A DNA stretch of 64,000 bases, from positions 12,878 to 76,877 of the forward strand of contig JAUIFY010000001.1 in assembly GCA_030430245.1 (NCBI GenBank), in the 5' to 3' direction. The notes beneath the pieces were generated by a model. The model made no database searches. It saw only the letters and a list, made by a program, of their open reading frames with translations, and was not told the DNA's origin. This document shows, piece after piece, positions 33,415 through 52,830 of the stretch; position 1 is the stretch's first letter; the number at the start of each line of letters is the position of its first letter. The stretch is from a bacterium (GTDB lineage Bacteria; Desulfobacterota; Binatia; UBA12015). A program made the translations under genes and the position numbers.

Positions 33415-33573
33415 ATGGGTCGATCCCTGCAGAGCTTGATCGTTTTCGTGTTGGTGCTTCTCGGGCTGAACTGGTTTCTCGGCGAGATGAACTACGGCCT
33501 CCACATCTCGATCGTCGGCAGCATCGTGCTGACGCTCGTGGTGTCGATGATCATGAACGGGCTGAATCGCTGA
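33415..33573 (+). CDS. Possible small hydrophobic membrane peptide (52 aa)
   Basis: MGRSLQSLIVFVLVLLGLNWFLGEMNYGLHISIVGSIVLTLVVSMIMNGLNR. It overlaps the convergent oxidoreductase stop by 23 nt and has no clear RBS. Confidence 0.2.
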   Translation: MGRSLQSLIVFVLVLLGLNWFLGEMNYGLHISIVGSIVLTLVVSMIMNGLNR

Positions 33574-34591: not shown

Positions 34592-34730
34592 GGCTCTCGC
34601 GGCGTGGAATCGTCGGATTGACGCCAGGCGCCCGACGTATACCCTCGCCCGTCATGAATCCAGGTACCGCGGCGCGACGCGGTGCGGCGGACCGTGCGCG
34701 CGACCGCCAAGACCGGGGTAGGAAGAGACA

Positions 34731-34982
34731 TTGCCACGAAAGCTCCACATGTTGACCGGTGCCGTCTACGAGACGGACGGTGCGGGCGTCGTTCGCGTCA
34801 CCACCCGGCAGGGGAGAGTCGGTCGCTTCGACTCCCACGGCGCGTGGATCGACGGCGAGCTTCGCGAGGCCGACCCCCACCTGTGCCTCTGGGTGGGAGG
34901 CCGCCAACTGCCGGAGGGCAAGGCGGCGAGCTTCAAGGACCTCCCGCTCAAGACCGGTCGCGAGGAGGGAGCCGACGCATGA
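34731..34982 (+). CDS. Small conserved-looking protein (83 aa) translationally coupled to the Rieske oxygenase
   Basis: MPRKLHMLTGAVYETDGAGVVRVTTRQGRVGRFDSHGAWIDGELREADPHLCLWVGGRQL... is not Arg-rich junk. Its stop overlaps the Rieske ATG (ATGA). The true start may be the internal Met at residue 7. Confidence 0.45.
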   Translation: MPRKLHMLTGAVYETDGAGVVRVTTRQGRVGRFDSHGAWIDGELREADPHLCLWVGGRQLPEGKAASFKDLPLKTGREEGADA

Positions 34983-36319
34983 CCGCCCCGCGCCATCCCG
35001 GAGCGATCACCTACCAGGAGCTGCTCGACACCGACACGCGCGAGGTGCCCCCGGTCCTCCGGATCGACTCGCGCATCGACGACGCCCCGGATCGCGTCCC
35101 GGTCGAGCGATACGTCTCTCGCGAGTTCTTCGAGCTCGAGATCGAGAAGGTGTGGCGCCGCGTCTGGCAGGTGGCCTGTCGGGAGGAGGACGTGCCCGAC
35201 GTGGGCGACCACCTGGTCTACGACATCGCGGGGATGTCGATCCTCGTCGTTCGGTCGAAGCCGGACGAGATCAAGGCGTACTGGAACGCGTGTCTCCACC
35301 GTGGGCGGATGCTGCGCGACCAGCGCGGACGCTCCAGCGACCTTCGGTGCCCGTTCCACGGTTGGTGCTGGCGCCTCGACGGCAGCCTGAAGGAGATCCC
35401 GGCCGGGTGGGACTTTCCGCACGTCGATGCGGCGGAGAACTCGCTGCCCGAGGTTCGGGTCGACACCTGGGGCGGGTTCGTCTTCGTGAACCTCGATCCG
35501 AGCTGCGGTCCCCTGGCGGATCATCTCGGTGACCTCCCGAAGCACTTCGAGCGCTGGCCGCTGGAGAAGCGCTACAAGGCGGCGCACGTGGCGAAGATCC
35601 TGCGATGCAACTGGAAGGTCGCGCAGGAGGCGTTCATGGAGGCGTACCACGTCGTGGGGACGCACCCGCAGCTCATGTGCAGCCTCGGCGACTCGAACAC
35701 CCAGAACGACGTCTTCCCGACGTTCTCGCGCTCCCTGACGCCCAACGGGACGCCCAGTCCGCATCTTCCCGAGCGACCGAGCGAGCAGGCGATGGCCGAC
35801 AACGTGCTCGATCTCGACTACGAGGCGCCGTCCCGCGTGCCCGTGCCGGAGGGGGCGACGGCGCGCGAGACGCTGGCCGAGGTGCGCCGGGCCGCCCTTC
35901 GAGGCGTGCTGAACGGAGGAGCCGACGAGCTCTGCGACGCGGAGCTGATGGACAGCTTCTACTACACGCTCTTCCCGAATCTGCACCCGTGGGGCGCGTA
36001 CAATCGCATCGTCTACCGGTTCCGGCCGCACGGCACCGACCATCGGCAGAGCATCATGGAGGTGATGTTCCTCGAGCCGCTGCCCGACGGACCCCGGCCG
36101 AAGGCGGCGCCCATCCACTGGCTCGGCCCGGACGACGACTGGGTGGATGCCGACGAGCTCGGGATGCTCGCGCGGGTCTTCAATCAAGACAACTTCAACC
36201 TGCCGCGTCAGCAGCGGGGGCTCGAGACGACGCGGAAGACGCACGTGCAGCTCGCGCACTACAACGAGTCGCGGCTTCGTCACTTCCACCGCCTCCTGGG
36301 CGAGTGGATGGAGCGCTGA
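34979..36319 (+). CDS. Rieske [2Fe-2S] non-heme iron ring-hydroxylating oxygenase, alpha-subunit only (KshA-like class)
   Basis: Rieske CLHRGRML...CPFHGWCW (CxH...CxxH). No adjacent beta subunit. 446 aa. Confidence 0.8.
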   Translation: MTAPRHPGAITYQELLDTDTREVPPVLRIDSRIDDAPDRVPVERYVSREFFELEIEKVWRRVWQVACREEDVPDVGDHLVYDIAGMSILVVRSKPDEIKAYWNACLHRGRMLRDQRGRSSDLRCPFHGWCWRLDGSLKEIPAGWDFPHVDAAENSLPEVRVDTWGGFVFVNLDPSCGPLADHLGDLPKHFERWPLEKRYKAAHVAKILRCNWKVAQEAFMEAYHVVGTHPQLMCSLGDSNTQNDVFPTFSRSLTPNGTPSPHLPERPSEQAMADNVLDLDYEAPSRVPVPEGATARETLAEVRRAALRGVLNGGADELCDAELMDSFYYTLFPNLHPWGAYNRIVYRFRPHGTDHRQSIMEVMFLEPLPDGPRPKAAPIHWLGPDDDWVDADELGMLARVFNQDNFNLPRQQRGLETTRKTHVQLAHYNESRLRHFHRLLGEWMER

Positions 36320-36337
36320 GCGGATCCGCGGCCGCGC

Positions 36338-37408
36338 TCAGTCCAGAAGGTCGAGCGCGCCGGTCTCGTGGATGGTCTCGGCCGAGCGTGAGGCGAGGGC
36401 GCGGACCATGTTCGCGCCCCGCTCGTTCGCGTGGTCGAGCGTTCCCGCGATCACGACGGCGAACGTGAAGAGGTAGAGGACCGATGCGCGGTAGTCCTTC
36501 CAGCACTGGTCGAAGTCGTAACCGCGGACGCCGCGCGCGCAGATCCCGTCGTAGTAGCGCCGGACGAGCGCGTCCTGGTGGCGGCGTCGCTCGTCGGATC
36601 GCAGGCTCTGGCTCATGAAGTAGCCGAGGTCGTGCGGCCCGCAGGATTTCGAGATCCCCTGCCAGTCGAACATCGCGACCCCGTCGGGGTCGCCGTCGAC
36701 GTCGAAGAAGAGATTGTCGAGGCGGAAGTCGCCGTGCGCGACCGTGAGGACGCCGGCGCACATCCGGGCCAGACAGGCGCCGGTCTGCGGTCCGATCTTC
36801 GCGTACTGCTCGGCCAGGCCCGACGGAAGCACGTCCCCGAACTTCTCCAGAAACACCGGCCACCCGGCGGCGAATCCCTGGCTCATCCCGCCGACCTGCG
36901 TCGGGTTGTCGTGCACGGGGATCCAGGCGAGATCGGGATGGTCCGTCTTGCCCCACCACGTCGCGTGGAGCTCGGTCATCTGGTCGATCGCACTCCGGGC
37001 GTCCTTCAGGCCGCAGCCTGCGAGTTGGTCGCCGAAGCGGCAGGTCGACATGTCCTCGAGGAGCAGGATGAAGTCGCTGTTGTCCGGGTTCAGCTCGGCG
37101 CAGTAGGGCCTGGGCGAACGGGCCGGCGTTCGCCCAGCGAGCGTCTGGTAGAAACGGACCTCGCGCCCGTACATGTCGAACGTCTCCGCGACGACGCGAT
37201 TGCCCGGCGTCTCGCTCGGAAACTTCGCGATCAGCGTTGCCGGTCCCGCGTCGGGACGCTCGTACGTGAGGGCGATTCGCTTCGAGGTGCCGATCATGCC
37301 GGCCCCCTCGCCGAGGGATTCGATCTCGAACGCGGTGACGGGCGCGCCGAGAACGCCCGAGAGCCAGTCCGCGGTCAGGTCTTCGGGTCGGCTCGGGAAC
37401 GCCGTCAT
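36338..37408 (-). CDS. Phosphotransferase-family protein (APH/choline-kinase-like kinase fold)
   Basis: HGDFRLDNLFF is the Brenner HxDxxxxN motif. AMFDWQ is the DFG-equivalent. Confidence 0.7.
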   Translation of the reverse strand: MTAFPSRPEDLTADWLSGVLGAPVTAFEIESLGEGAGMIGTSKRIALTYERPDAGPATLIAKFPSETPGNRVVAETFDMYGREVRFYQTLAGRTPARSPRPYCAELNPDNSDFILLLEDMSTCRFGDQLAGCGLKDARSAIDQMTELHATWWGKTDHPDLAWIPVHDNPTQVGGMSQGFAAGWPVFLEKFGDVLPSGLAEQYAKIGPQTGACLARMCAGVLTVAHGDFRLDNLFFDVDGDPDGVAMFDWQGISKSCGPHDLGYFMSQSLRSDERRRHQDALVRRYYDGICARGVRGYDFDQCWKDYRASVLYLFTFAVVIAGTLDHANERGANMVRALASRSAETIHETGALDLLD

Positions 37409-38205
37409 GGGATGGACTCCTCGTCCTCGAAGCCGTACTCGGCCTTGAGGTCGGCCACCTTGAGGACCTGGCCGGTGCGCGACATCAGGTTCGGGTCGGT
37501 CGCGAGCGCGACGACGGCGCGTCCGCTGAGCAACGGCGACTGCGCGCGCGTCGGATCGATCTTCGCCTTCCCTTGCGCGACCTGCTCCAGGATGAACTCG
37601 GTCTTGACCGCGCTCGGCCAGATCGAGACGGCGGCGACGCCGTGGCTCTCGAGCTCGACCGCCATGTCCTGGGCCAGGCGGTCGACGCCGATCTTGCCGA
37701 CGCCGTAGGCCACGCTGTGGGCGTAGCCGGCTGCGCCGCGTGAAGAGACGTTCACGATGAGCGCGCCCTTGCGCTCGAGCATCATGGGCGCGGCGTGGTG
37801 GCTCGCGACGTAGTGCGCGCGGAGCCCGATCCCCACCATGTCGTCCCAGATCGAGATCGGGTGCTTCCAGAACTCGCCTTCCCAGACCGGCTCGTCGGGG
37901 ACCTTGAAGACGTTGTTCACCAGGATGTCGAGCCCGTCCTGCTCGGAGCGGATGCGCTCGAAGAGAGCCTCGATCTGGCCATCGTCGCCGTGGTCGACCT
38001 GCACCGCGATGCCCTTGCCTCCGCGACGCGTCACCTCCTCGGCGGTGGCGCCGATGGTGCCGGGCAGGGGCGCGCTCCCTTCCCGCACGGTTCGGCCGGT
38101 GACGTAGACCGTCGCACCCGCCTCACCGAGGCCCATCGCGATGCCCTTGCCGATGCCCCGGCTCGCGCCCGTCACGACGCAGATCTTGCCCGTCAAGCTA
38201 CTCAT
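37405..38205 (-). CDS. SDR-family oxidoreductase
   Basis: Internal Met of track ORF 37405..38436. MSSLTGKICVVTGASRGIGKG is TGxxxGxG. YGVGK is YxxxK. ATGA overlap with the APH-like gene. Confidence 0.8.
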   Translation of the reverse strand: MSSLTGKICVVTGASRGIGKGIAMGLGEAGATVYVTGRTVREGSAPLPGTIGATAEEVTRRGGKGIAVQVDHGDDGQIEALFERIRSEQDGLDILVNNVFKVPDEPVWEGEFWKHPISIWDDMVGIGLRAHYVASHHAAPMMLERKGALIVNVSSRGAAGYAHSVAYGVGKIGVDRLAQDMAVELESHGVAAVSIWPSAVKTEFILEQVAQGKAKIDPTRAQSPLLSGRAVVALATDPNLMSRTGQVLKVADLKAEYGFEDEESIP

Positions 38206-38267
38206 CGGTGCACCTCTTACACATCTGGCTTCGAGAAGGGTATAGGAACGCCCGGAAGGAGACCGAA

Positions 38268-39047
38268 ATGCGACTCGAAGGCAAAGTCGCCGCCGTGACC
38301 GGCGGTAGCCGAAGCATCGGCCGGGCGATCGTCGAGGCGTTCTTGCGCGAAGGCGCGCGCGTGTGCCTGAACGGTCGCAGTGAAGAGAAGGGCGCTCGAG
38401 CCCTGGCCGAGATCGGTGCCGGCGACCGGGCCGCATTCGTCGCGGGCGACGTGCGAAGCTCGGCGGACATCGAGCGCCTCGTCGAGACGACCGTCTCGAA
38501 GTTCGGGCGGATCGACATCATGGTCAACAACGCCGGCGGGATCACCGAGCCCGCACCGGTGATCGCTCTCAGCGACGACGCGTGGGCCAACGACGTGCAG
38601 TGGAACCTGACGAGCGTGTTCTATGGTACGAAGCACGCTCTCAAGCACATGGTTCCTCAGAAGTTCGGCCGCATCATCAACATCTCGTCCGTCGAGGGGA
38701 AGATGGGGGTGCCGGGCATGGCGGGCTACGCGGCGTCGAAGCACGGGGTGAACGGGCTCACGAAGGCCACGGCGGGCGAGGTGGGCCGCGAAGGCGTCAC
38801 GGTGAACGCGATCTGCCCCGGGCTGATCCTGACCGACGCCGTCACCGAGGGCGGTCCCCAGACGGCCGAGGCCATGGGGATGACGTTCGAGGACATGGTC
38901 GAGAACGTCTTCAAGGCCAAGACGATGACGGGCGAGCTGAACACGGTCGAGCAGGTCGCGGAGCTGGCGGTGCTGCTCGCCAGCGATCTCGGAGCGGGCT
39001 TCACCGGAGCCCAGCTCTCGGTGGACGGGGGAATCGCACCGTACTGA
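38268..39047 (+). CDS. SDR-family oxidoreductase (3-oxoacyl-ACP reductase-like)
   Basis: MRLEGKVAAVTGGSRSIGRA...NNAG...YAASK. ggagaccgaa RBS. It is the internal start of track ORF 38208..39047. Confidence 0.8.
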   Translation: MRLEGKVAAVTGGSRSIGRAIVEAFLREGARVCLNGRSEEKGARALAEIGAGDRAAFVAGDVRSSADIERLVETTVSKFGRIDIMVNNAGGITEPAPVIALSDDAWANDVQWNLTSVFYGTKHALKHMVPQKFGRIINISSVEGKMGVPGMAGYAASKHGVNGLTKATAGEVGREGVTVNAICPGLILTDAVTEGGPQTAEAMGMTFEDMVENVFKAKTMTGELNTVEQVAELAVLLASDLGAGFTGAQLSVDGGIAPY

Positions 39048-39060
39048 GCCCGTTTCCGGG

Positions 39061-40332
39061 TCAGCCACCGGGCTTCTTGTCGACGATCAGGTCGAGTCCG
39101 GCGAGGCCGCGCAGGACGAAGCTCGGCTCGTACTCGACCTGGTAGCCGGGGGCGAACCGAAACGACTCGATGCGTCGCGCGAACTCCTCGAAGGCGATTT
39201 GCGCCTCGAGTCGAGCCAGCGGCGCGCCGGGACAGACGTGGGTGCCTTTCCCGAAGGCGATGTGATCCTTCACGTTCGCCCGCGTCGGATCGAACCGGTC
39301 GGGATCGGGGAAGTACGTCTCGTCGCGATTCGCCGAGCCGAAGATGATCCAGAGCCGGGCCCCCTCGGGGAGCTTCGTCCCGCAGAGCTCGGTGTCGGCC
39401 GTGACCGTGCGGAAGAGCCCCTGGTTCGGGCTGCTCAGCCGGAGTGCCTCTTCGACCATCGCGGGGATCGTCGACGGATCGTCCTGGATCCGTCGCCACT
39501 CGGCCGGGTTCTCGATCAAGAGACGGATGGCCTCGGCGAGGAGCTTCGTCGTGGTCTCGTTCCCCGCGACCATGAACTGGCGCATCATGCTGATGAACTC
39601 CGCGACGTCGAGCTTGCGGACCGCCCCGGTGTGGTCCTCGAAGTCCGCGTTCACGAGGTTCGAGACGATGTCGTCGCGCGGGTTCTTTCTGCTCTCCTCG
39701 TAGCGGCCGGCCCAGTAGTGCTGGGATTCGACGACGCCGCGCGCCGCCTCGATCCGCCGCTCGTCGGAGATCCTCGTTCCGAGGGTCGCGACGGAGTCGT
39801 CCGACCAGCGGCGTACGTCCTTCGCCCGCTCGGCTTCGATCGAGAGAGCGTACGAGATCGCCTTGATCGGGAACGGGGTTCCGAAGCTCGGGTCGAAGGC
39901 GATCTCTCCGTGGTCGGGCCACGCGTCGATGAGCTGGTTCGTCACGTCGCGCAGCAGCGGCTCGAACTCCCGGATCCGGCGCGGGGTGAAGGGCTTGCCG
40001 ATCGCCTTGCGATACCGCGTTTGCGCGGGAGGATCGGCCGTCAGCATCGTGGGCACCATCGGGTAGCCCTCGGCCGCGATCTTCTTGATCTCCTCGTCGA
40101 CCTCGGGCCGTCCGCCACGGTCGGTTCGCGCCTTGGCCGATTCCGAGGAGAACAGGTTGGGTCGCCCGAGAACCTCGAGGACGGCGTCCATGGTCGAAAC
40201 GAAGTAGAGGCCCGACTTCTCGTGATGAAAGACCGGCGCGGTGCGGCGCAGAGCCGCGTAGTAGGGAAACGGGTTCTGCTGCGCTGTTCGCTCGATCGGG
40301 TCGTACGTCGAGAGATCGATCTCGCTGCTCAC
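39061..40332 (-). CDS. Cytochrome P450
   Basis: Heme loop FGKGTHVCPGAPLAR (FxxGxxxCxG). ExxR (EEALRL). GTG start VSSEIDLSTYDPIERTAQQNPFPYYAALR chosen inside track ORF 39061..40581. 424 aa. Confidence 0.85.
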   Translation of the reverse strand: MSSEIDLSTYDPIERTAQQNPFPYYAALRRTAPVFHHEKSGLYFVSTMDAVLEVLGRPNLFSSESAKARTDRGGRPEVDEEIKKIAAEGYPMVPTMLTADPPAQTRYRKAIGKPFTPRRIREFEPLLRDVTNQLIDAWPDHGEIAFDPSFGTPFPIKAISYALSIEAERAKDVRRWSDDSVATLGTRISDERRIEAARGVVESQHYWAGRYEESRKNPRDDIVSNLVNADFEDHTGAVRKLDVAEFISMMRQFMVAGNETTTKLLAEAIRLLIENPAEWRRIQDDPSTIPAMVEEALRLSSPNQGLFRTVTADTELCGTKLPEGARLWIIFGSANRDETYFPDPDRFDPTRANVKDHIAFGKGTHVCPGAPLARLEAQIAFEEFARRIESFRFAPGYQVEYEPSFVLRGLAGLDLIVDKKPGG

Positions 40333-40682
40333 GTGTCGTCCTCGGTCGTGAAGAAGTCCGCGCGCGGCTTGCCGTCGCGGTCGTAGACGGGCTCTTGCAC
40401 GTCGATGCGATATTTCGAGATGTCCGTGGAGAGGCGCCGGAACGATCCGAGGGTCTTGCGCATCTCCCGATAGAGGGGGCCTTCGAAGTGCGCGGAGAGA
40501 GACGCTTCGTCCTCCCACCGCTCGAAGACGTACATGCGCTCCGGCACCGCGGGATCCGGGGTCCACACGTAGTCGAGGCACCCGGGCAGCTCTCGCGTCC
40601 GGGCGGAGAGCTCGCGTGCGGCTTCCACGGCGGCATCGCGCTCGTCGGGGGCGAAGTCCAGGGTGCCAGCGATGATGATCAT
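40329..40682 (-). CDS. ABM-domain (antibiotic-biosynthesis-monooxygenase-like) small protein
   Basis: It is the last 117 aa of shadow ORF 40329..42647: MIIIAGTLDFAPDERDAAVEAARELSARTRELPGCLDYVWTPDPAVPERMYVFERWEDEASLSAHFEGPLYREM. 4-nt overlaps with both neighbours. Confidence 0.6.
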   Translation of the reverse strand: MIIIAGTLDFAPDERDAAVEAARELSARTRELPGCLDYVWTPDPAVPERMYVFERWEDEASLSAHFEGPLYREMRKTLGSFRRLSTDISKYRIDVQEPVYDRDGKPRADFFTTEDDT

Positions 40683-41863
40683 TTCCTTCCCTTGCCGGTG
40701 CGGGGCAGACCGAGGATGCGCTCGGCGATGATGTTGCGTTGGATCTCGCTGCTGCCGCCGAAGATCGTATAGGCGCGCGACCAGAGCTCGCGCCACTGCC
40801 AGATGCCGCGGTCGATCCCGTCGTCCAACCAGTGCTGCGCGGCCAGGCCCTGCGCCTCGTTCGCCAGACGCGAGAGGCGTTGGTCGTACTCGGACATCTG
40901 GAGCTTCAGGAGGCTCGACGCGGGCCCGGCCTTCCGGCCGGTGCGCACCTCTTCGACCGACTGGAGCACCTGTTGCTTCAGGACCTCGAACTCGATGCGG
41001 CACTGCGCGAATCGCTGCCGGAAGCTCGGGTCGTCCGCGAGCGATCTGCCCGCGCGGTGCGTGATTCGTGCGCGCTCCGCGATCTGGTCCAGGAAATCGC
41101 CGAACCGGAGCATCGCCAGGTTGGCGCCGCGCTCGTGCGCGAGGACGTGGTTCGCGACCTCCCAGCCCTGGGTCGGCCGGCCGACCATGTGGGCCGCCGG
41201 GACGCGGACGTCCTCGAAGAACACCTGACAGAAGTCGACGTCGGTCGTGATGTTCACGATCGGCGCGACCTCGATCCCGGGGCTCTTCATGTCGATCAGC
41301 AAGAAGCCGATGCCGGCCTGCTTGCGCGCTTCGGGATCGGTGCGCACCAGGGCGAAGATCCAGTCGGCGTGCGTGCCGTAGGTGGTCCAGATCTTCGTCC
41401 CGTTCACGACGTAGTCGTCGCCGTCGAGCACCGCGCGCGTTTGGAGGCTCGCCAGATCCGACCCCGCTCCCGGCTCCGAGTAGCCCTGACACCAGATCTC
41501 GTCGGCCGAGAGGATGCCCGGCAAGAAGCGGCGCTTCTGCTCTTCGGTGCCGTACTCGAGGAGCGCGGGGACGCACTGCTTGACGCCTACCTGGTTGGCG
41601 ATGGGAGGTGCGCTCGCCCGGACCATCTCCTCGGCCCGGATCAGCTCGTGCTCGGCGGAGAGTCCCTGGCCGCCGTACGCGCGCGGGAGGGTCAGGCCCA
41701 TGTAGCCGGCGTCGAACAGCGTGCGCTGCCACGCGCGGATCTCGTCGAACCGACGCTCCGGGACCTCGTAGGGGGTCGCGGCGAACTCCTCCTGCCACCA
41801 CGCCGGCACGTGGTCGTCGAGCCAGCGGCGCAGATCGGTGCGCCAGTCGTCGAGTGCGCTCAT
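40679..41863 (-). CDS. Acyl-CoA dehydrogenase (second gene of a tandem ACAD pair)
   Basis: MSALDDWRTDLRRWLDDHVPAWW...CQGYSEPGAGSDLASL...IFGGSSEIQRNIIAERILGLP. It is the last 394 aa of track ORF 40679..42985. Confidence 0.8.
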   Translation of the reverse strand: MSALDDWRTDLRRWLDDHVPAWWQEEFAATPYEVPERRFDEIRAWQRTLFDAGYMGLTLPRAYGGQGLSAEHELIRAEEMVRASAPPIANQVGVKQCVPALLEYGTEEQKRRFLPGILSADEIWCQGYSEPGAGSDLASLQTRAVLDGDDYVVNGTKIWTTYGTHADWIFALVRTDPEARKQAGIGFLLIDMKSPGIEVAPIVNITTDVDFCQVFFEDVRVPAAHMVGRPTQGWEVANHVLAHERGANLAMLRFGDFLDQIAERARITHRAGRSLADDPSFRQRFAQCRIEFEVLKQQVLQSVEEVRTGRKAGPASSLLKLQMSEYDQRLSRLANEAQGLAAQHWLDDGIDRGIWQWRELWSRAYTIFGGSSEIQRNIIAERILGLPRTGKGRK

Positions 41864-42963
41864 AGTCCGGCTCCGCGCGCGATCCGCTCGCGGTGCTCGT
41901 CCGGGTGCCCGGCCGTGATCTCGTTGGCGCGTGCGCGCTTGTAGAAGAGGTGGCAGTCGAACTCCCACGTGAACCCGACGCCGCCGTGGATCTGGATCCC
42001 CTCGGCGGCGACCTCCCGGTAGGCCTCGGTCGCGTAGGCCTTGGCCATCGAGCAGGCGAACGCGCCGTCGTCCCGATGGCGCTCGAGCTCGCGGGCCGCG
42101 TGGTAGGTGATCGCACGCGCCCCTTCCGTTCGTACGAGCATGTCCGAGCACTTGTGCTTGATCGCCTGGTTCGCTCCGATCGGCGCGCCGAACTGGACGC
42201 GCTCCTTCGCGTAGGCGACGGTGCTCTCCAGGACCCGTGCGCATCCCCCCACCGCCTCGGCCGCGAGGGCGAGCCAGTGGATGGGCTCGGCGTGGGGCCA
42301 CAGCGCCGCGAGCCGACCGACGAGGCGGGCCGGGGTGCCTTCGAACGTGACGCGATGGAGCGGTCGCGTCTCGTCCATCGTCGCCGGGGACTCGACGGTG
42401 ACGCCGTCCGCGTCTCGGTCGACGAGGACCCAGACGAGATCGTCGTGGGCGTCGCGTACGGCGACGACGATCTGGTCGGCCACCGGCACGTCCGCGACGA
42501 ACGCCTTGGTGCCCGTGACACCCGCAGCCTCCGACCAGTGCGCCGCGAACGTCGTCGGGTCGTCTCCCTCGACCTCCGCGAACGCGACGGCGAGAACGAG
42601 GTCGCCGGCCGCGACGCGCGGGCACGCCTCGCGTGCGAGGCCCGCATCGTCGCTCCGTGCGAGGAGGGCGGTTCCGAGCAGGGTGCTCAGGTACGCGGAC
42701 GGAACGAGACCGCGCCCCAGCTCCTCGAGGACGATGGTCTGCTCGACGAACGTGAGCGCCATGCCGCCGTGCTCTTCGGGAAGGAGCAGCCCGAGCCAGC
42801 CCATCTCTGCGAACTGCTTCCACAGCGCGGCGTGCATCTCGGCCCGCCGTGTCGGCTCGGACCGGGTCCACTCCCGAACCCGGGCGATCGGATGGCGCGC
42901 GGCGAGGAGCTCGCGGGCGGAATCGCGCAGCAGGAGCTGCTCGTCGGTCAGGAGCGTCGTCAC
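41860..42963 (-). CDS. Acyl-CoA dehydrogenase family protein (first gene of a tandem ACAD pair)
   Basis: GTG start VTTLLTDEQLLLRDSARELLAARHP...FGAPIGANQAIKHKCSDMLV...IQIHGGVGFTWEFDCHLFYKRA. It is the last 367 aa of track ORF 41860..43686. Confidence 0.75.
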   Translation of the reverse strand: MTTLLTDEQLLLRDSARELLAARHPIARVREWTRSEPTRRAEMHAALWKQFAEMGWLGLLLPEEHGGMALTFVEQTIVLEELGRGLVPSAYLSTLLGTALLARSDDAGLAREACPRVAAGDLVLAVAFAEVEGDDPTTFAAHWSEAAGVTGTKAFVADVPVADQIVVAVRDAHDDLVWVLVDRDADGVTVESPATMDETRPLHRVTFEGTPARLVGRLAALWPHAEPIHWLALAAEAVGGCARVLESTVAYAKERVQFGAPIGANQAIKHKCSDMLVRTEGARAITYHAARELERHRDDGAFACSMAKAYATEAYREVAAEGIQIHGGVGFTWEFDCHLFYKRARANEITAGHPDEHRERIARGAGL

Positions 42964-43727
42964 GCCCCCTCCGGACGAACCGCATCGAGGCCGCCGATCG
43001 CCCAGCGGAGGCCCCGGCGCAAGAGCTCGTAGTAGACGGGCAGCTCCCAGGAGCCGCGCTCGATCTTCGGGTACACGTCCATACGCGGCCGCATGTCGTG
43101 CTTCCCGCGGCAATGGCCGAGCGTCAGGTAGAGGACCTCGCCCCGTCCTTCGGGGTGCAGGTACATCACGAGTCGCGGATCGTCGTTCGGCCAGTCGCGG
43201 TCGACGAAGCCGCGCGCTTCGCCGGTGAAGCGCGTCTCCAGAAGGGGCTCGATCTCTCCGTAGTAGTCGCAGAGATAGAGCTCGTCGTCGGTCTCGAAGT
43301 CCTCGATTCCGGCGACCAGGGGGTGGTCGGGCCGTGTCGTGCGGACGCGGTAGGGGGCGATCGGTGGGTGGGCGAGGAAGCGCGATCCGAGCGCCCGCAT
43401 CATCACCGCGTGGGTGCGCAGCGCCTTCACGCCGTCGTCCCGGAACTCGAAGACGGAGTTCGTGCCGTGCAGCGCGAACCAGCGGCGGCCGCTGGCGACG
43501 TACGCGGCCAGCGCTTCCTGCTGCTCGGTCGGCACGGGATCGAGATCGCAGGTGTAGGTCACGAGGAAGTCGGACGCATCGAGGGCGGCCAGGTCGGAGA
43601 AGTTCTCGGCGAGGCGGGTCCGAACGTCCTCGTGCTCGCCGAGGAGCTTCAGCAGCTCGAGGCGTGCGAAGTCGAAGTCGTGCCATCGTCCTCCGCAGAC
43701 GAGGTATGCCGAGACCGGGCTACTCAC
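42960..43727 (-). CDS. ThuA-like (class I glutamine-amidotransferase-like fold) protein
   Basis: MSSPVSAYLVCGGRWHDFDFARLELLKLL...WFALHGTNSVFEF resembles ThuA/DUF1037. Assignment is tentative. Confidence 0.5.
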   Translation of the reverse strand: MSSPVSAYLVCGGRWHDFDFARLELLKLLGEHEDVRTRLAENFSDLAALDASDFLVTYTCDLDPVPTEQQEALAAYVASGRRWFALHGTNSVFEFRDDGVKALRTHAVMMRALGSRFLAHPPIAPYRVRTTRPDHPLVAGIEDFETDDELYLCDYYGEIEPLLETRFTGEARGFVDRDWPNDDPRLVMYLHPEGRGEVLYLTLGHCRGKHDMRPRMDVYPKIERGSWELPVYYELLRRGLRWAIGGLDAVRPEGA

Positions 43728-43752
43728 GCCGACATCTCTCCGGAGGACGGGC

Positions 43753-44511
43753 TCAGAAGTTCACCCTCTTCGTGTACCCGCCGTCCACGATGAGGTGGAC
43801 TCCGGTGATGTGCTTCGCGGCCGGGCTCGAGAGGAACACGACCGCGTTCGCCACATCCTGCGCTTCGCCCATCTTCCCGCCGGGATGGTCGGCGAGCGCC
43901 GCTTCGTACATCGCGGGTCGTCCCTGCTTGATGCGGTCCCACGAGCCGCCTTCGATGAAGATCGGCCCCGGTGAGACGGTATTCACCCGGATGCCCTTCG
44001 CGCCGAGGCTCTGCGACAGTCCGTTTGCGTGCGTCACCAGGGCCGCCTTCATGGCGTTGTAGGAGGTCGGCCCCATGAAGGTCTCGACGGCCGCAGTCGT
44101 TCCGATGAACATCACGCTGGCCGCGTCCGAGGCCTCGAGCGCCTCCTGCGCCGCCTCCACGCTCCGTACGGCACCGAGCACGTCCACCTCGAAGTTCGCC
44201 CGCCAGGCGGCTTCGTCCACACCGTTGCCGCCGCTCGGATTGCTCACGAGGATGTCGAGCCCGCCCAGGGCTTCGATCGAGGCAGAGATGAAGGCCCGGA
44301 GAGCGTCTCCGTCGCCGACGTCCGCCACCTGTCCGTGGACGCGAACGCCCTTCGCCTCGAGATCCTTCTTCGTCGCGTCCACGGCTTCCTGCGTGCGGGA
44401 GCAGATCGCGAGATCGACGCCTTCGCCCGCGAGCGTCTCCGCGATCGCACGGCCGATGCCGCGCGTTGCTCCGGTGACGAGCGCCTTCTTTCCCTTCAAT
44501 CCCAGGTCCAC
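43753..44511 (-). CDS. SDR-family oxidoreductase
   Basis: KKALVTGATRGIGRAIA...YNAMK. Confidence 0.85.
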   Translation of the reverse strand: MDLGLKGKKALVTGATRGIGRAIAETLAGEGVDLAICSRTQEAVDATKKDLEAKGVRVHGQVADVGDGDALRAFISASIEALGGLDILVSNPSGGNGVDEAAWRANFEVDVLGAVRSVEAAQEALEASDAASVMFIGTTAAVETFMGPTSYNAMKAALVTHANGLSQSLGAKGIRVNTVSPGPIFIEGGSWDRIKQGRPAMYEAALADHPGGKMGEAQDVANAVVFLSSPAAKHITGVHLIVDGGYTKRVNF

Positions 44512-44520
44512 GTTCGACTC

Positions 44521-45294
44521 CTATGCGCAGTAGCCGCCATCGACGGGGATCTCGGCGCCCGTGATGAAGCTCGATTCGTCGGATGCGAGGAAGACGGCCA
44601 CGGCGGCGATCTCCTCTGGTTGGCCGATCCGTCCCATCGGATGACGAGATCCGAACGCGGCGATACCGGCGTCTCGGGTCGGGCTCGCCGAAAGATACCG
44701 GTCGAGAATCGGTGTCTCGACGACGCCGGGGCAGATCGCGTTGCAGCGGATGTTCCACTTCTCTTCGGCGCAGCGAAGAGCGACCGATCGCGTCAGCGCG
44801 AGTACCGCCGCTTTGCTCGCGCAGTAGGCCGGGTACTTCGAGCCAGCTCGGATCGCCAGCGACGAGGCGATGTTGACGATCGTGCCGCCGCCCGCCCGGC
44901 GGAGCGCGTCCACGCCGTGCTTGCAGCCGAGGAAGACGCCGTCGGCGTTCACGCGCATCACGTGGCTCCAGTGGTCCAGCGTCGCCTCGTCGATGGTTGC
45001 AGGTACGCTGATGCCGGCGCAGTTGAGCACCGTGTCGACCTTGCCGAACTTCGCTTCCGCGGCAGCGACCGCCTGGTGCCAGTCGCTCTCCGAGGTCACG
45101 TCGAGGTGGACCGCCAAGGCCGCCGTGCCGATCTCGTTCGCGAGCGAGGCGGTCACGGTGTCCTGCAGGTCTCCGATCGCGACCTTCGCGCCCGCCGCGG
45201 CCATGGCGCGACAGCTCGCCGCGCCGATCCCGGAGGCTCCCCCGGTGACGAGCGCTACTTTGCCGTCCAGGCGCGGAGACGGGGCGTGGGTCAT
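44521..45294 (-). CDS. SDR-family oxidoreductase
   Basis: GKVALVTGGASGIGAA...NCAG...YCASK. Confidence 0.85.
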   Translation of the reverse strand: MTHAPSPRLDGKVALVTGGASGIGAASCRAMAAAGAKVAIGDLQDTVTASLANEIGTAALAVHLDVTSESDWHQAVAAAEAKFGKVDTVLNCAGISVPATIDEATLDHWSHVMRVNADGVFLGCKHGVDALRRAGGGTIVNIASSLAIRAGSKYPAYCASKAAVLALTRSVALRCAEEKWNIRCNAICPGVVETPILDRYLSASPTRDAGIAAFGSRHPMGRIGQPEEIAAVAVFLASDESSFITGAEIPVDGGYCA

Positions 45295-45321
45295 GCGGTC
45301 GGTTTCCTCCTCGGGGGTTGT

Positions 45322-45341
45322 GCGGTCTAGCTAGTGACCGC
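45322..45341. promoter_or_regulatory. Imperfect palindrome GCGGTC-tagctagt-GACCGC (with self-complementary CTAGCTAG core) in the divergent promoter region
   Basis: Seen between the SDR operon start (45294, minus) and the acyl-CoA synthetase start (45397, plus). Confidence 0.2.
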
Positions 45342-45396
45342 TACGGAGGTTCTACCTGTTCCTGGTCGGTGATCAACGCGCCGGCCCACCGTCCGC

Positions 45397-46920
45397 ATGA
45401 GACTCTTCGCCGAGATCGCCGCCGCTCGCCCCGACGAGGTGGCGTTGCAGGATGCCGGCCGTGCGTACCGGTGGGCCGAGGTGGACGACGTGCTGAACCG
45501 CGTCGTGGAGACGCTCCTGGGCGCGGATCTGGGCGAGAGGCGCCGCGTCGCCGTCTTCGCGGAGAACTCGGCCGAGACGGTGCTTGCCCACGTCGGTGGC
45601 TTGCTGGGGAGCGCGTCGGTCGTGCCCGTGAACTTTCATCTGAAGGCGTCCGAGGCGGCGTACATCCTCTCCGATTCGGAGGCGCGGCTATTGTTCGTCG
45701 GTCCCGAGAACCTCGAGGCGGGACTCGCGGCCGCGGCCGAGGCGGGCGTGCCGGCGGTCGTGGGCTGGCGCTGCCCGGAGCGCGACGGCGTGACGGCGTG
45801 GGAGGCGTGGATCGCCGAGGCTTCGGGCGACCCGGCTCCGGAGGGGCACGCGCCTCGTCCGAACCTCATGTACACGTCGGGGACGACGGGCCGACCCAAG
45901 GGTACGGAGCTTCCCCCGACGATGTTCGCGGGGGGCGCGAGCATCACGGACCTCCAGCGTCAGCTTCGCGAGGAGAGCTGGTGCAAATACGGTCGGCACC
46001 TCGTCGTCGGGCCGCTCTACCACACCGGCCCCTTGCGCGCGGTCCGCATTCTCGGTGGGGGCGTGCCGATCGTCGTTGGGGGGAGGTTCGACGCGGAAGA
46101 GACGCTGCGCACGATCGAGCGCCATGCGGTCGAGTCGACGATCATGGTGCCGACGCACTTCATCCGCCTTCTCGCGCTGCCGCCCGAGGTACGCGATCGC
46201 TACGACGTCTCGAGTCTGCGCATGGTCTACCACACCGGAGCCGCGTGCCCGATCGACGTGAAGCGAGCGATGCTCGAATGGTGGGGGCCCGTTTTGCACG
46301 AGGCGTATGGCGCCACCGAGGTCGGGACGACGTGCCGGATCGGACCCGAGGAGTGGCTGGAGCATCCCGGATCGGTCGGACGCCCCGTGCCTCCGTACGA
46401 CGTGATCGTCTGCGACGACGACGGAAACGAGCTGCCGGTGGGCGAGACCGGACGGCTCTTCTTCCGGGACGAGACCGGGCGCGGCGTCGTCTACCACAAC
46501 GATCGGGCCAAGTCGGAGGCCGCGCACCTGCGGCCGGGGGTCTTCACGCTCGGCGAGATCGGCCGTGTCGACGAGGCAGGCTACGTCTACATCACGGATC
46601 GATTCTCGGACATGATCGTGTCGGGGGGCGTGAACGTCTACCCGGCGGAAGCCGAGCAGACGCTCGCCGAGCATCCGCGGGTGCGGGACGTCGCGTGCGT
46701 GGGAGCGCCGCATCCCGAGATGGGCGAGGAGCTCGTCGCCATCGTGCAGCCGATCGACGCGGCCGATCCTCCGGAGGTCGCCGAGCTTCTCGCGTTCTGT
46801 CGCGAGCGACTCTCGCACTACAAGTGCCCGCGTCGGGTCGAGCTGAGGCCCGATCTCGGGCGAAACGCGATGGGTAAGATCGACAAGCGCGCGCTGCGCG
46901 CGAGCGTCGCCGGAGCGTGA
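45397..46920 (+). CDS. AMP-dependent acyl-CoA synthetase/ligase (FadD-like)
   Basis: MYTSGTTGRPKG is the AMP-binding motif. YGATE, GEIGRVDEAGYVYITDR, and the C-terminal GKIDKRAL. Confidence 0.85.
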   Translation: MRLFAEIAAARPDEVALQDAGRAYRWAEVDDVLNRVVETLLGADLGERRRVAVFAENSAETVLAHVGGLLGSASVVPVNFHLKASEAAYILSDSEARLLFVGPENLEAGLAAAAEAGVPAVVGWRCPERDGVTAWEAWIAEASGDPAPEGHAPRPNLMYTSGTTGRPKGTELPPTMFAGGASITDLQRQLREESWCKYGRHLVVGPLYHTGPLRAVRILGGGVPIVVGGRFDAEETLRTIERHAVESTIMVPTHFIRLLALPPEVRDRYDVSSLRMVYHTGAACPIDVKRAMLEWWGPVLHEAYGATEVGTTCRIGPEEWLEHPGSVGRPVPPYDVIVCDDDGNELPVGETGRLFFRDETGRGVVYHNDRAKSEAAHLRPGVFTLGEIGRVDEAGYVYITDRFSDMIVSGGVNVYPAEAEQTLAEHPRVRDVACVGAPHPEMGEELVAIVQPIDAADPPEVAELLAFCRERLSHYKCPRRVELRPDLGRNAMGKIDKRALRASVAGA

Positions 46921-48462: not shown

Positions 48463-48720
48463 TCTGAACCTCAGTCGAAGACGCTCCGCGCGACCGCTCC
48501 GTCGGTCCCGCGGAGGCCGCCGTGGCAGGTGCCGGCGGCGGAGGTAGGGACCTGCACGTCGGCCGGTGCCGCGGCGTCGAGCGGGACGTCGGCGCCCCGG
48601 AGGGGCACCTTCTTCTCGGACGGAGGGGCGGCGGCTCGCACTCCCGGATCTTCGCATGCGGGGTGGCCATTTCGCCACACGACCGATCGTGGGCACCGAG
48701 GTTCTCGACGGCTCGCGCCG

Positions 48721-52079: not shown

Positions 52080-52113
52080 GTCCGCCCCATTTTGCGAGGA
52101 GATGAGGAAGACA

Positions 52114-52827: not shown

Positions 52828-52830
52828 AAC

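Follow-up and report, generated by a model that had tools for sequence, protein, structure and literature searches.

What does this run of oxygenase, dehydrogenase and acyl-CoA enzyme genes do, and does it degrade sterols as the first-pass annotation proposed? In the window, by which we mean the whole 64-kb stretch of DNA that was analysed, a GC3-based gene model combined with Pfam and NCBIfam domain scans delimited an island of about 15 genes at 33551-46920. It comprises an MDR enone reductase, an 83-aa ORF, a Rieske oxygenase, an EcKL/APH-like kinase and four SDRs together with a P450, an ABM protein, an acyl-CoA dehydrogenase (ACAD) pair, a ThuA-like protein and an acyl-CoA ligase, as follows.

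33551..34591, minus strand: MDR-family NADPH enone / double-bond reductase (Pfam ADH_N_2 and ADH_zinc_N)
34618..34645, plus strand: weak candidate promoter of the small-ORF/Rieske operon (TTGACG, 16 nt, TACCCT)
34731..34982, plus strand: 83-aa partner of the Rieske oxygenase (TTG start, motif ADPHLCLW)
34979..36319, plus strand: Rieske non-heme iron oxygenase alpha subunit, 446 aa (Pfam Rieske and Ring_hydroxyl_A)
36338..37408, minus strand: EcKL/APH-type small-molecule kinase-like protein (Pfam EcKL 5e-17, APH 2e-5)
37405..38205, minus strand: SDR oxidoreductase, PRK08303-like, first of an SDR-kinase pair (Pfam and NCBIfam)
38208..39047, plus strand: SDR oxidoreductase, 3-hydroxybutyrate-dehydrogenase-like (Pfam adh_short; NCBIfam 227 bits, cut-off 258)
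39061..40332, minus strand: cytochrome P450 (Pfam; heme loop FGKGTHVCPG)
40329..40682, minus strand: ABM-domain (antibiotic-biosynthesis-monooxygenase-like) protein (Pfam 1.4e-15)
40679..41863, minus strand: catalytic (alpha) subunit of a heteromeric ACAD (PDB 4x28_A, ChsE4, 1e-53)
41860..42963, minus strand: non-catalytic (beta) subunit of a heteromeric ACAD (PDB Tcur3481, 2e-29)
42960..43727, minus strand: ThuA-like (class-I glutamine-amidotransferase-fold) protein (Pfam ThuA 3e-14)
43753..44511, minus strand: SDR oxidoreductase, partner of the ThuA-like gene (Pfam and NCBIfam; orthologues beside ThuA)
44521..45294, minus strand: SDR oxidoreductase, first in a 7-gene operon (NCBIfam PRK06138 256 bits, cut-off 312)
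45397..46920, plus strand: acyl-CoA synthetase, FadD-type (Pfam; NCBIfam PRK12406 393 bits)

Every gene listed by the first-pass annotation was recovered at its coordinates, including exactly four SDRs (37405-38205, 38208-39047, 43753-44511 and 44521-45294). Its start, 34731, is indeed a start codon, but it is the TTG of the separate 83-aa ORF and lies outside the Rieske gene; the kinase-like gene at 36338-37408 (minus strand) had been omitted, and the left border was set one gene too late, the conserved unit starting at the MDR reductase (33551-34591, minus strand). For SDR 38208-39047 the adh_short domain begins at residue 26, so the gene probably starts some 20 codons further downstream. 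An ARAGORN 'tRNA-Ser' at 44685-44772 lies inside SDR gene 44521-45294 and was discarded as a false positive. The 7-gene operon on the minus strand runs from SDR 44521-45294 to the P450 at 39061-40332 and diverges from the FadD-type ligase gene across 102 bp. All NCBIfam matches of island enzymes fell below curated cut-offs and therefore assign no specificity to any of them.

Gene order and orientation are kept for 13-14 genes on L001, L026, L031/L035, L034, L036 and L038, with 54-90% amino-acid identity between syntenic genes on at least six other metagenomic contigs, which derive from several uncultured Myxococcota-like bacteria. The same order at such identities on at least six contigs indicates a functional island rather than a chance mix, and the region is a real conserved gene cluster; with this synteny and tight operons with 4-nt gene overlaps, the earlier description of a coherent lipid-like catabolic set holds. 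Orthologues of SDR 37405-38205 share 77-88% identity, those of SDR 44521-45294 62-74%, and those of SDR 38208-39047 79-90% in relatives and 56-59% in Frankia loci, while the ABM gene adjoins the P450 gene in L001, L026, L031, L034 and L038 and is duplicated in L002-L006. A smaller core of ThuA, SDR, Rieske and small-protein genes, with or without MDR, P450 and ABM genes, was present in Myxococcota, Acidimicrobiia, Frankia and Trebonia loci. In all four groups the pairing of the ThuA-like gene with an SDR gene that always precedes it is kept, orthologues of SDR 43753-44511 showing 45-61% identity beside ThuA across phyla and 82-87% in close relatives; the ThuA-like protein itself had no PDB sequence match. 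In the loci compared, this core contained no CoA enzymes and had no steroid genes adjoining it.

The Rieske protein had been called KshA-like, an assignment we do not retain, as on sequence grounds it is a member of an uncharacterised, widespread family and not KshA. Its motifs are intact (C105-x-H107...C124-x2-H127 and E221-x2-H224-x4-H229) and more than 6,600 homologues were found at E<=1e-30. KshA matched it weakly (E 7e-5 to 3e-4), over no more than the ~80-90 residues of the Rieske domain, and was missing from the Foldseek top 50. Both KshA (PDB 2ZYL, 4QDF) and the island protein have a Rieske [2Fe-2S] domain and no beta subunit, but their catalytic domains belong to different Pfam families (Ring_hydroxyl_A in the island protein) and the island has no KshB. 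In the PDB its nearest relatives, none of them close, were phthalate and naphthalene dioxygenases together with CntA, a carnitine monooxygenase, and the C-terminal substrate-binding half had no PDB sequence match. The label 'beta-subunit-less' is correct in that no Ring_hydroxyl_B protein occurred among the scanned called genes, but it passes over a dedicated small partner. No ferredoxin or reductase gene for the oxygenases was found in the 64 kb by Pfam scans of nearly all called genes.

Foldseek placed the quaternary-ammonium monooxygenases CntA and Stc2 as top neighbours (TM 0.56-0.67), and GbcA was the top NCBIfam match. CntA (PDB 6Y9C), the stachydrine demethylase Stc2 and GbcA have the same Rieske and Ring_hydroxyl_A architecture and no canonical beta subunit; the island protein differs in its dedicated partner and the lack of an adjacent reductase gene. 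These neighbours, together with a BCCT transporter gene close to the core in L002-L005, would suit another class of substrate, namely quaternary-ammonium or N-methylated compounds (acyl-carnitine-, betaine- or choline-type lipids) catabolised through Rieske C-N cleavage or demethylation. A second Rieske gene also adjoins the core operon in L002-L005, and the kinase has a choline/aminoglycoside kinase fold. We nevertheless regard this as very unlikely: identity to CntA is only 16-18% with biphenyl dioxygenases scoring nearly as high in Foldseek, GbcA reached 124 bits where the cut-off is 670, and the substrate-binding half is invisible to PDB sequence searches. The BCCT gene of L002-L005 is encoded on the other strand and forms a pair with a Rieske gene of its own, and the window has no BCCT transporter.

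The stop codon of the 83-aa ORF overlaps the Rieske ATG (ATGA) and the two genes are translationally coupled. Of 22 distinct contigs, 20 encode the small protein next to a Rieske orthologue; homologues of the small protein form 334 clusters at 50% identity, with no Pfam match at E 0.1 and no PDB fold match. In four Rieske alpha subunits (P0211, P0222, P0227 and P0269) it is an internal domain, P0211 aligning with the window protein at 53% and 40% identity either side of the insert. The island oxygenase can thus be described as 'split', and the 83-aa protein probably contributes a lid or inserted domain close to the entrance of the active site. Upstream, the TTGACG-16 nt-TACCCT element lies in a block conserved with L026, L027 and L037 in the intergenic alignment; a consensus promoter scan did not call it.

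The closest approach to steroid catabolism was found in the ACAD pair, a predicted heteromeric alpha2beta2 enzyme of the ChsE4-ChsE5-like or PimCD type. The first-pass annotation had recognised it as heteromeric, which is supported. A catalytic Glu is kept in the large subunit only: this subunit has Gly where MCAD has its Glu but carries the IVD-type Glu in LAHE244R, and the small subunit has no Glu at either catalytic position. The large subunit was closest to 4x28_A (ChsE4, 1e-53) and then Tcur3483 (3e-48), and the small subunit to Tcur3481 (2e-29) and then ChsE5 (4x28_D, 8e-20). As in ChsE4-ChsE5/FadE26-27 of M. tuberculosis (4X28), Tcur3481-3483 of T. curvata (6WY8/9) and PimCD, the genes are adjacent and translationally coupled, with 4-nt overlaps on both sides of the beta gene. 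The island pair lies between the ThuA-like gene and the ABM/P450 genes instead of within a steroid or pimelate operon, and its scores are far below the equivalog cut-offs (PimC 268 bits, cut-off 624, for the large subunit; IpdE2 176, cut-off 450, the top match, and PimD 136 for the small one). The alpha2beta2 type is best known from steroid catabolism, which counts against a non-steroid explanation.

If the island served steroid catabolism or transformation, the P450 would attack the side-chain terminus, the FadD-type ligase and ACADs would carry out side-chain beta-oxidation, and the Rieske protein and SDRs would act on the rings. The P450 matched CYP125MRCA, the reconstructed CYP125 ancestor (37% identity, 9e-55), and CYP142 (2e-51, PDB), but its best solved homologue was CYP109Q5 (PDB 6GMF, 1e-63). 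At 36% identity to this enzyme it falls short of the 40% that marks membership of a CYP family; it is equidistant from CYP109Q5 and the CYP125 ancestor, and as close to non-steroid P450s. CYP109Q5 is a versatile terpene/steroid monooxygenase from the myxobacterium Chondromyces apiculatus (PMC6389848). The kinase matches the ecdysteroid-kinase-like Pfam family, a DUF35 and Ltp-like thiolase pair adjoins the island in L034, and some Myxococcota make sterols (PMC10202945). The ligase matched PRK12406 (393 bits), FadD4 (374), FadD3 (222) and CasG (201), all below cut-off, and FadD5 in the PDB (8e-51). DesAB is a transketolase-like steroid 17,20-desmolase and, by analogy, an Aco-like TPP enzyme encoded in relatives could cleave a 17-hydroxy-20-keto acyloin.

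We consider a steroid role unlikely, and sterol side-chain and ring degradation as first proposed is mostly unsupported, with only the ACAD pair resembling steroid-type enzymes. Besides the Rieske protein not being KshA and the cross-phylum core lacking CoA enzymes, the steroid equivalogs all scored far below cut-off (IpdE2 176/450, FadD3 222/657, CasG 201/750, 7alpha-HSDH 80-141/350). No KshB, KstD, HsaA-D or FadA5 homologue was detected in the window or the flanks examined, which upholds the earlier remark that the locus differs from canonical kstR clusters, and Pfam scans of nearly all called genes found no thiolase, ferredoxin or reductase domains in the window. No TetR-family regulator lies beside the island; the only one in the window is at 18699-19385, 15 kb off. 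A second block at 55.9-62.7 kb had been added to the pathway; its genes are present, as follows, with no demonstrable link to the island.

55900-57201: ACAD
59040-60497: FAD oxidoreductase, CrtO/CrtI-like
60546-61751: CoA-transferase III
61767-62651: enoyl-CoA hydratase

The block is of mixed strands, broken by genes for a GSH peroxidase and a CAP-domain secreted protein, and lies ~9 kb from the island; no orthologues of it were found beside the island in relatives, L026 giving only 27-37% matches.

The MDR reductase matched curcumin reductase (338 bits, cut-off 440) and the LTB4 12-HD/15-oxo-PG 13-reductase family (218 bits) in NCBIfam. Its gene is transcribed divergently from the small-ORF/Rieske pair, with orthologues beside the Rieske gene in L026 (75%), L031 (66%), L037, L038, L017 and L032, and at 39-40% in Frankia L011/L014. 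The kinase-like protein carries HGDFRLDN and DWQ motifs, its gene overlaps the upstream SDR gene (37405-38205) by 4 nt and is translationally coupled to it, and orthologues occur in L001, L026, L031 and L034 (61-74%), while L036 and L038 have an EcKL/APH gene in the corresponding place; the protein had no NCBIfam match and no PDB sequence match at E<=0.01. These enzymes could be combined in a pathway that catabolises or detoxifies oxidised fatty acids such as oxylipins, alkenals and 4-oxo or 4-hydroxy acids: an MDR alkenal/one reductase would saturate the enone, FadD would activate the acid, and the SDR-kinase pair would yield a 4-phosphoacyl-CoA from which the ACAD eliminates phosphate, as in bacterial Lva and mammalian ACAD10/11. 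The MDR, kinase-coupled SDR, ACAD and ligase genes parallel LvaD/LvaA/LvaC/LvaE, the Lva operon and ACAD10-ACAD11 sharing with the island an APH-type kinase, SDR, ACAD and acyl-CoA ligase (PMC12440821), and the second block contains the glutathione peroxidase. This interpretation is quite improbable, however, as the catalytic Asp and HCMR motif of ACAD10/11/LvaC are missing from 5/5 window ACADs, the kinase has no detectable sequence match in the PDB, and the Rieske, P450, ABM, ThuA, BVMO and Aco-like genes would be left unexplained.

Relatives of the island carry further genes for acetoin-dehydrogenase-like E1/E2, a PtlE-like type-I Baeyer-Villiger monooxygenase (BVMO), an F420-type luciferase-like oxidoreductase (TIGR03621 LLM, 316 bits, above the 213 cut-off) and an enoyl-CoA hydratase (ECH). 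The AcoABC-like E1/E2 genes adjoin the orthologous ligase, which is the last gene of a divergent E1alpha-E1beta-AcoC-like-ligase operon (71% in L034, 67% in L035). An RPE65 carotenoid-cleavage oxygenase, a TetR regulator and a TonB receptor flank the island in L031 and L036; this flank is missing from the window and was seen in these two related contigs only. The window island is a reduced version of its relatives' island without the Aco-like, BVMO, LLM and ECH genes, and its pathway may thus be truncated or different.

An alternative to degradation is that the island makes or tailors a lipid or secondary metabolite of the cell itself (e.g. a modified carotenoid, sterol or terpenoid). Consistent with it are the many enzymes of tailoring type (P450, ABM, SDRs, Rieske, kinase), the occurrence of the ABM family and PtlE-like BVMO in known antibiotic pathways, and the CrtO/CrtI-like gene at 59040-60497. 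Its probability is nonetheless low, since neither the window nor the flanks yielded a scaffold-forming enzyme (PKS, NRPS, terpene cyclase/synthase, squalene or oxidosqualene cyclase), uptake and catabolism are the typical setting of genes such as those for the ligase, ACAD pair, ECH, Aco-like E1/E2, TonB-dependent receptor and TetR, and the core module recurs in widely differing phyla and surroundings.

The interpretation that we favour, with evenly balanced confidence, is that the island is a conserved catabolic unit of an uncultured Gram-negative bacterium, probably one of the Myxococcota, and that it most likely turns an oxygenated hydrophobic non-aromatic compound into acyl-CoA for beta-oxidation, an alicyclic/isoprenoid ketone or alcohol being a likelier substrate than a sterol. 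The AcoABC-like E1/E2, BVMO, LLM and ECH genes, the RPE65, TetR and TonB flank and the P450 with CYP109Q5 as its best solved relative point to alicyclic/isoprenoid catabolism, and the DUF35 and Ltp-like thiolase pair of L034 was counted likewise. The camphor cam, abietane dit and acyclic terpene atu clusters resemble the island and its relatives in enzyme classes, with a P450 and/or Rieske hydroxylase, SDRs, a CoA ligase, an ACAD and an ECH, and, as in the relatives, luciferase-like or flavin Baeyer-Villiger monooxygenases. In comparison to these clusters the island additionally has the ThuA-like protein, EcKL/APH kinase and small Rieske partner, and its relatives the Aco-like E1/E2.

Judged by family membership, C-H hydroxylation would be performed by three oxygenases, the 'split' Rieske monooxygenase (alpha subunit and 83-aa partner), the P450 and the ABM protein, with redox partners for the Rieske protein and P450 presumably encoded elsewhere. 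Four SDRs would then interconvert alcohols and ketones, one of them forming with the ThuA-like protein a putative CH-OH dehydrogenation pair, and the MDR enone reductase would reduce a conjugated C=C. The SDR-coupled kinase may phosphorylate a hydroxyl, either activating it for elimination or trapping the compound; the ligase would activate the resulting carboxylate and the alpha2beta2 ACAD would alpha,beta-desaturate the bulky or branched acyl-CoA, while in relatives the Aco-like TPP E1/E2 could cleave an acyloin C-C bond to give acyl-CoA. The terpenoid alternative included in the first proposal is still viable, a terpenoid- or apocarotenoid-like substrate being more likely than a sterol, and the 83-aa Rieske partner, previously undescribed, is a new element of the region.

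Genes were called across the window with a codon-position GC model, chosen because the window is uniformly GC-rich (0.63–0.71), and were annotated with Pfam and NCBIfam. The catabolic gene set that the first-pass annotation had listed was recovered in full and at the positions given, comprising a Rieske oxygenase, a P450, an ABM monooxygenase, two overlapping acyl-CoA dehydrogenase (ACAD) genes, a ThuA-like gene, four SDRs and an AMP-binding ligase. An MDR enone reductase, an EcKL/APH kinase-like gene and a separate 83-aa ORF, all absent from that annotation, were also called, and four transcription units can be told apart by gene spacing within the island (33551–46920).

Features of the island (window coordinates)
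33551–34591: MDR enone-reductase gene, first gene of the conserved unit
34731–34982: separate 83-aa ORF, TTG start, stop codon overlapping the Rieske ATG
34979–36319: Rieske and Ring_hydroxyl_A gene (Pfam), a transcription unit with the 83-aa ORF by their 4-nt overlap
36338–37408: EcKL/APH kinase-like gene, a transcription unit with an SDR gene by their 4-nt overlap
45294 to 39061, minus strand: seven-gene operon of SDR, SDR, ThuA, ACAD-beta, ACAD-alpha, ABM and P450, whose genes overlap by 4 nt or lie no more than 25 nt apart
Ligase: its own transcription unit, divergent across 102 bp

Compared with the related loci L026 and L037, the window carries approximately 66 extra nucleotides between a promoter-like conserved block and the small ORF (34651–34730), and the ORF starts with TTG where ATG is found in the relatives. 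Promoter, terminator and inverted-repeat scans of 33.3–48.8 kb gave chance-level counts and nothing usable, and Rfam had no match over the whole window. A tRNA-Ser(cga) predicted by ARAGORN on the plus strand (44685–44772) is almost certainly a false positive, as it lies inside an SDR gene (44521–45294; Pfam 1e-64) and has no Rfam tRNA counterpart. Recent horizontal transfer of the island was also rejected, its GC content being 0.67–0.70 throughout with no compositional signal.

The Rieske protein had been described as KshA-like, a label that did not hold. Matches in a phmmer search of PDB sequences (4qdf_B, 6.9e-5; 2zyl_A, 2.6e-4) covered only query residues 60–160, the Rieske domain alone, and KshA was missing both from the family-profile PDB search at 1e-10 and from the Foldseek top 50. 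Unlike KshA, the window protein has no KshB partner nearby, and Pfam scans of nearly all called window genes returned no ferredoxin or ferredoxin-reductase domain. The catalytic domain is of the Pfam Ring_hydroxyl_A type, and the best PDB sequence matches of the protein were phthalate 3,4-dioxygenase (2e-29), naphthalene dioxygenase and the carnitine monooxygenase CntA (9e-26), while a 20-sequence family profile matched PDB chains only over positions ~28–240. The AlphaFold model (pLDDT 78) had CntA, 3N0Q, Stc2 and biphenyl dioxygenases as its nearest folds at 16–21% identity (Foldseek). A role in the oxidation of quaternary-ammonium compounds would draw on the likeness to CntA, Stc2 and GbcA, the last being the top NCBIfam match; however, the GbcA score of 124 bits falls well below the cut-off of 670, there is no close full-length similarity to these monooxygenases, and for CntA the sequence match is limited to residues 41–234 and the fold match to 16–18% identity, so that such a substrate appears very unlikely.

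Identity with the sterol demethylase components SdmA/SdmB is made less likely by distribution and gene context. SdmAB, a Rieske protein and reductase acting in sterol C4-demethylation, was reported in only 31 bacteria (PMC10202945), whereas the Rieske family described here has > 6,600 members; neither an oxidosqualene cyclase nor CYP51 was found in the window. In comparison to canonical α3β3 ring-hydroxylating dioxygenases, the window has no Ring_hydroxyl_B or NTF2-like β gene and has an unrelated 83-aa partner in its place, and a SnoaL_4 gene lies near the Rieske gene in only some relatives. The earlier description of a β-subunit-less oxygenase is therefore correct with regard to a canonical β subunit in the window, but the protein is not a lone α subunit.

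The 83-aa partner is conserved with an invariant D-P-H-x-C-L motif, and a profile search of six-frame ORFs placed it within ~1.5 kb of a Rieske orthologue on 20 of 22 distinct contigs; those lacking it measure 3.9 and 4.9 kb. In the window and in L026–L031, L033 and L036–L038 it immediately precedes the Rieske gene, with overlapping stop and start codons. In L017, L032, L034 and L035 it also comes immediately before that gene, and at the other loci it is either downstream or separated by one gene. The protein matched no Pfam family even at E 0.1, and its model, built of five short strands plus a helix and with a pLDDT of 82 or more across residues 1–60, had no Foldseek neighbour in the PDB below E 1. 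When searched against 1.84 billion representative proteins, its profile matched 334 clusters (79 at E≤1e-10), and several of the longer matches were Rieske α subunits holding a domain of this type within the catalytic domain. One of these (P0211, 536 aa) is 53% identical to the window Rieske protein over residues 2–263 and 40% over 293–444, with the small-protein domain replacing window residues 264–292; a second fused homologue (P0222) is one intact ORF on its contig. As domain fusion, translational coupling and co-occurrence all point the same way, a physical complex between the 83-aa protein and the Rieske subunit is the most economical reading of these sequences. Within such a complex the partner would probably be positioned as a lid near the substrate entrance, and it may be required for Rieske activity.

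The remaining enzymes of the island bear on the question of the substrate. Cytochromes P450 are assigned to the same family at 40% identity or more. HMMER alignments gave the window P450 37% identity to CYP125MRCA (8VXI, a reconstructed CYP125 ancestor) and 36% to CYP109Q5 (6GMF), with CYP142 matched at 2e-51, and on these values the P450 falls outside both the CYP109 and the CYP125 family. CYP109Q5 is a myxobacterial terpene monooxygenase (PMC6389848). The ligase scored below every NCBIfam cut-off (PRK12406, 393/701; FadD4, 374/850; FadD3 family, 222/657; CasG, 201/750), and in contrast to the steroid acyl-CoA ligases FadD3 and CasG it is best described by the generic FadD4/PRK12406-type models.

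The two ACAD genes are adjacent with a 4-nt overlap, and their products match α and β chains respectively. The closest solved relatives of the large subunit are ChsE4 (4x28_A, 1e-53) and Tcur3483 (3e-48), and those of the small subunit are Tcur3481 (2e-29) and ChsE5 (4x28_D, 8e-20). Manual alignment suggests that a catalytic Glu is kept in the large subunit only, at the IVD-type position (LAHE244R) with Gly at the MCAD Glu position, the small subunit having neither. Because of these chain matches and the single retained Glu, the pair is predicted to be an α2β2 heteromer of the ChsE/PimCD type. This architecture is not exclusive to steroids, as PimCD uses it for pimeloyl-CoA; PimCD is the best NCBIfam match of the large subunit, and all scores for the pair fall below equivalog cut-offs.

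The ACAD pair is the sole clearly steroid-like element of the island, and it speaks for sterol catabolism. Against this stand a Rieske protein that is not KshA-like, a P450 outside both families, a generic ligase and the absence of hallmark genes. In agreement with the earlier statement, Pfam scans of nearly all called window genes gave no KshB, KstD, Hsa or FadA5 homologue, and none was found in any flank examined. In comparison to a kstR-regulon cluster, the window yielded no KstD, HsaA-D, FadA5/Ltp thiolases or adjoining KstR-type TetR; its only TetR-family regulator (18699–19385) lies 15 kb from the island beside a FAA hydrolase and an aromatic hydroxylase, and an Ltp-like thiolase and DUF35 pair was present in L034 alone among the relatives. 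A literature search on steroid degradation in Myxococcota returned nothing relevant. Sterol catabolism is considered unlikely.

Alternatively, the SDR-kinase pair with ACAD and ligase genes could be compared to the Lva/ACAD10-11 4-hydroxyacyl-CoA pathway, with oxidised fatty acids as substrate. The catalytic Asp and HCMR motif that define ACADs of this pathway (PMC12440821) are absent from all five window ACADs, and the kinase, like the ThuA-like protein, had no meaningful match among PDB sequences. The pathway was rejected for these genes, and oxidised fatty acids are a quite improbable substrate.

Related loci were located by scanning a genome collection with the ThuA-like protein followed by tblastn of all window proteins, and contigs encoding Rieske and ThuA homologues were then inspected. 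The block from MDR to the last SDR, together with the ligase, retained its order and orientation at 54–90% amino acid identity on L001, L026, L031/L035, L034 (an 8.1-Mb contig), L036 and L038, and the closest named relatives are Myxococcota MAGs. A smaller core at 44–61% identity was found in Myxococcota, Acidimicrobiia, Frankia, Trebonia and other Actinomycetota loci, consisting of the Rieske gene, the small ORF and the ThuA-like gene preceded by its SDR, often with MDR, P450 and ABM as well. Among the loci compared, the ACAD pair, kinase and ligase were confined to the Myxococcota-like lineage. L037 retains only MDR, small ORF and Rieske genes, which suggests that these three form the minimal module.

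Several relatives add genes beside the island. The orthologous ligase (71% in L034, 67% in L035) is the last gene of a divergent operon in these two loci. It follows E1-α, E1-β and an acetoin-dehydrogenase AcoC-type protein that combines lipoyl, E3-binding and alpha-beta-hydrolase parts, and the start of the same operon is present in L026. As only 102 bp occupy this position in the window, its island is a reduced version from which the three E1/E2 genes are missing. Genes of the 2-oxoacid-dehydrogenase E1/E2 type also adjoin ThuA in core loci L007, L009 and L017. Just upstream of the small ORF, L031, L036 and L038 carry an enoyl-CoA hydratase and an F420-type luciferase-like oxidoreductase of family TIGR03621, the latter scoring 316 bits against a cut-off of 213.

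Additional genes in related loci (contig coordinates)
Acetoin-dehydrogenase-like E1α, E1β and AcoC-type E2 genes, between SDR operon and ligase: L034 5036–8330; L035 5037–8369; L026 from 21268
TIGR03621 luciferase-like oxidoreductase: L031 13290–14267; L035 16313–17290; L036 13283–14260; L038 10436–11413

A SnoaL-like gene is also present in L031 and L038, the L036 contig stopping short of that position, and a PtlE-like type-I Baeyer-Villiger monooxygenase is present in L031 and L036. In the flank of the latter two lie genes for a TonB-dependent receptor and a TetR regulator, together with an RPE65-family oxygenase for which the best-scoring model is that of an apocarotenoid-cleaving dioxygenase; the receptor indicates Gram-negative hosts. 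The TIGR03621 gene shares a contig with this receptor in both loci, and F420 use is unusual among Gram-negative bacteria. The Myxococcota core loci L002–L006 carry a luciferase-like monooxygenase (LLM), two ABM genes and DUF3604, and in the Myxococcota MAGs L002–L005 (~2600–6450) a betaine/carnitine/choline transporter of the BCCT type and another Rieske gene (398 aa), distantly related to the first, diverge from a core operon ordered DUF3604-P450-ThuA-LLM-ABM-ABM-small-SDR-Rieske.

Taken together, the island and its relatives offer hydroxylases and dehydrogenases, Baeyer-Villiger/luciferase-like oxygenases, acyloin cleavage by a TPP-dependent system, a CoA ligase, an ACAD for bulky substrates and a hydratase. 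A comparable toolbox serves for alicyclic and isoprenoid ketones, as in the degradation of camphor, abietanes and acyclic terpenes, which does not imply orthology. As the enzyme set suits such ketones, catabolism of a terpenoid- or apocarotenoid-like compound is favoured, and on this analysis we give it roughly an even chance of being the function of the island. Tailoring of endogenous lipids has only a slim chance. The first-pass reading of steroid or terpenoid catabolism is partly supported, in that the island is a real, conserved set of genes for the catabolism of a lipid-like compound, though not one specific to steroids. It is an uncharacterised cluster assembled from known families, plus a new form of Rieske oxygenase organisation; a literature search on ThuA with Rieske and P450 returned nothing relevant.

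A second block at 55.9–62.7 kb had been joined to the island in the first-pass annotation. All four enzymes listed for it are present (ACAD, FAD oxidoreductase, CoA-transferase III and enoyl-CoA hydratase); the link itself was dismissed, as the genes lie on mixed strands with no operon structure and are interspersed with genes for a glutathione peroxidase and a secreted CAP-domain protein, and no orthologues occur near the island elsewhere, only 27–37% matches in L026. Between island and block are three large ORFs (509, 563 and 556 aa; 46933–52079) with no Pfam or NCBIfam match, and GC falls to 0.63 at 50–52 kb. The window also encodes several eukaryote-like or secreted domains of a kind typical of myxobacterial genomes (52102–53742, 57834–58886, 62897–63160), namely Ysc84 (actin-regulator-like), DUF922, a CAP-domain protein carrying a Dictyostelium CTDC repeat, and an ORF with a PKD domain; they lend support to a tentative placement among the Myxococcota. 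Immediately before the island, on its upstream side, a five-gene operon (24101–33343) encodes a circularly permuted ATP-grasp, Alpha-E, a transglutaminase with DUF2126 (1105 aa), a CP_ATPgrasp and Alpha-E fusion of 850 aa and another transglutaminase, and resembles an amidoligase/peptide-modification system. Further upstream, a glyoxalase-fold gene precedes the TetR, FAA hydrolase and aromatic-ring hydroxylase genes (18092–21707), the hydroxylase being apparently split into overlapping ORFs (20233–21177, FAD_binding_3; 21165–21707, FAD_binding_3 tail and Rng_hyd_C), which may reflect a frameshift, pseudogene or sequencing error. A second adjacent ACAD pair (3012–4109 and 4123–5307) follows an HxlR-type regulator with a 4-nt overlap at 3012–3015 (region 2257–5307) and, unlike the island pair, has a C-terminal Glu motif in both members; downstream are an MBOAT (5502–6902), a weak GDSL/SGNH-like ORF (6915–7946) and an FMO-like flavoprotein (7943–9874).

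We tentatively propose, as a possibility short of an even chance, that a large and structurally uncharacterised family of Rieske monooxygenases has in the 83-aa protein an obligatory subunit that had gone unrecognised, this protein being the detached form of a domain inserted in the catalytic domain of some homologues. With the MDR enone reductase and SDR-ThuA pair it would then form a cross-phylum module (Myxococcota, Actinomycetota) that attacks some alicyclic or isoprenoid compound abundant in nature, and no full pathway centred on that module would be known before the 15-gene island. Thousands of environmental members of this family are annotated only as "aromatic ring-hydroxylating dioxygenase alpha", and a β-less Rieske gene beside a P450 and ACADs does not warrant a "KshA-like" or "steroid" label. 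The family apparently needs an 83-residue partner that has neither a Pfam family nor a structural relative and that is an internal domain in some members. If this is true, expressing such Rieske enzymes for biocatalysis or substrate discovery without the partner would fail. Should the catabolic reading be right, the island would mark a route, so far uncharacterised, by which uncultured Myxococcota-like bacteria degrade a hydrophobic natural product; Frankia and Acidimicrobiia have similar core modules.
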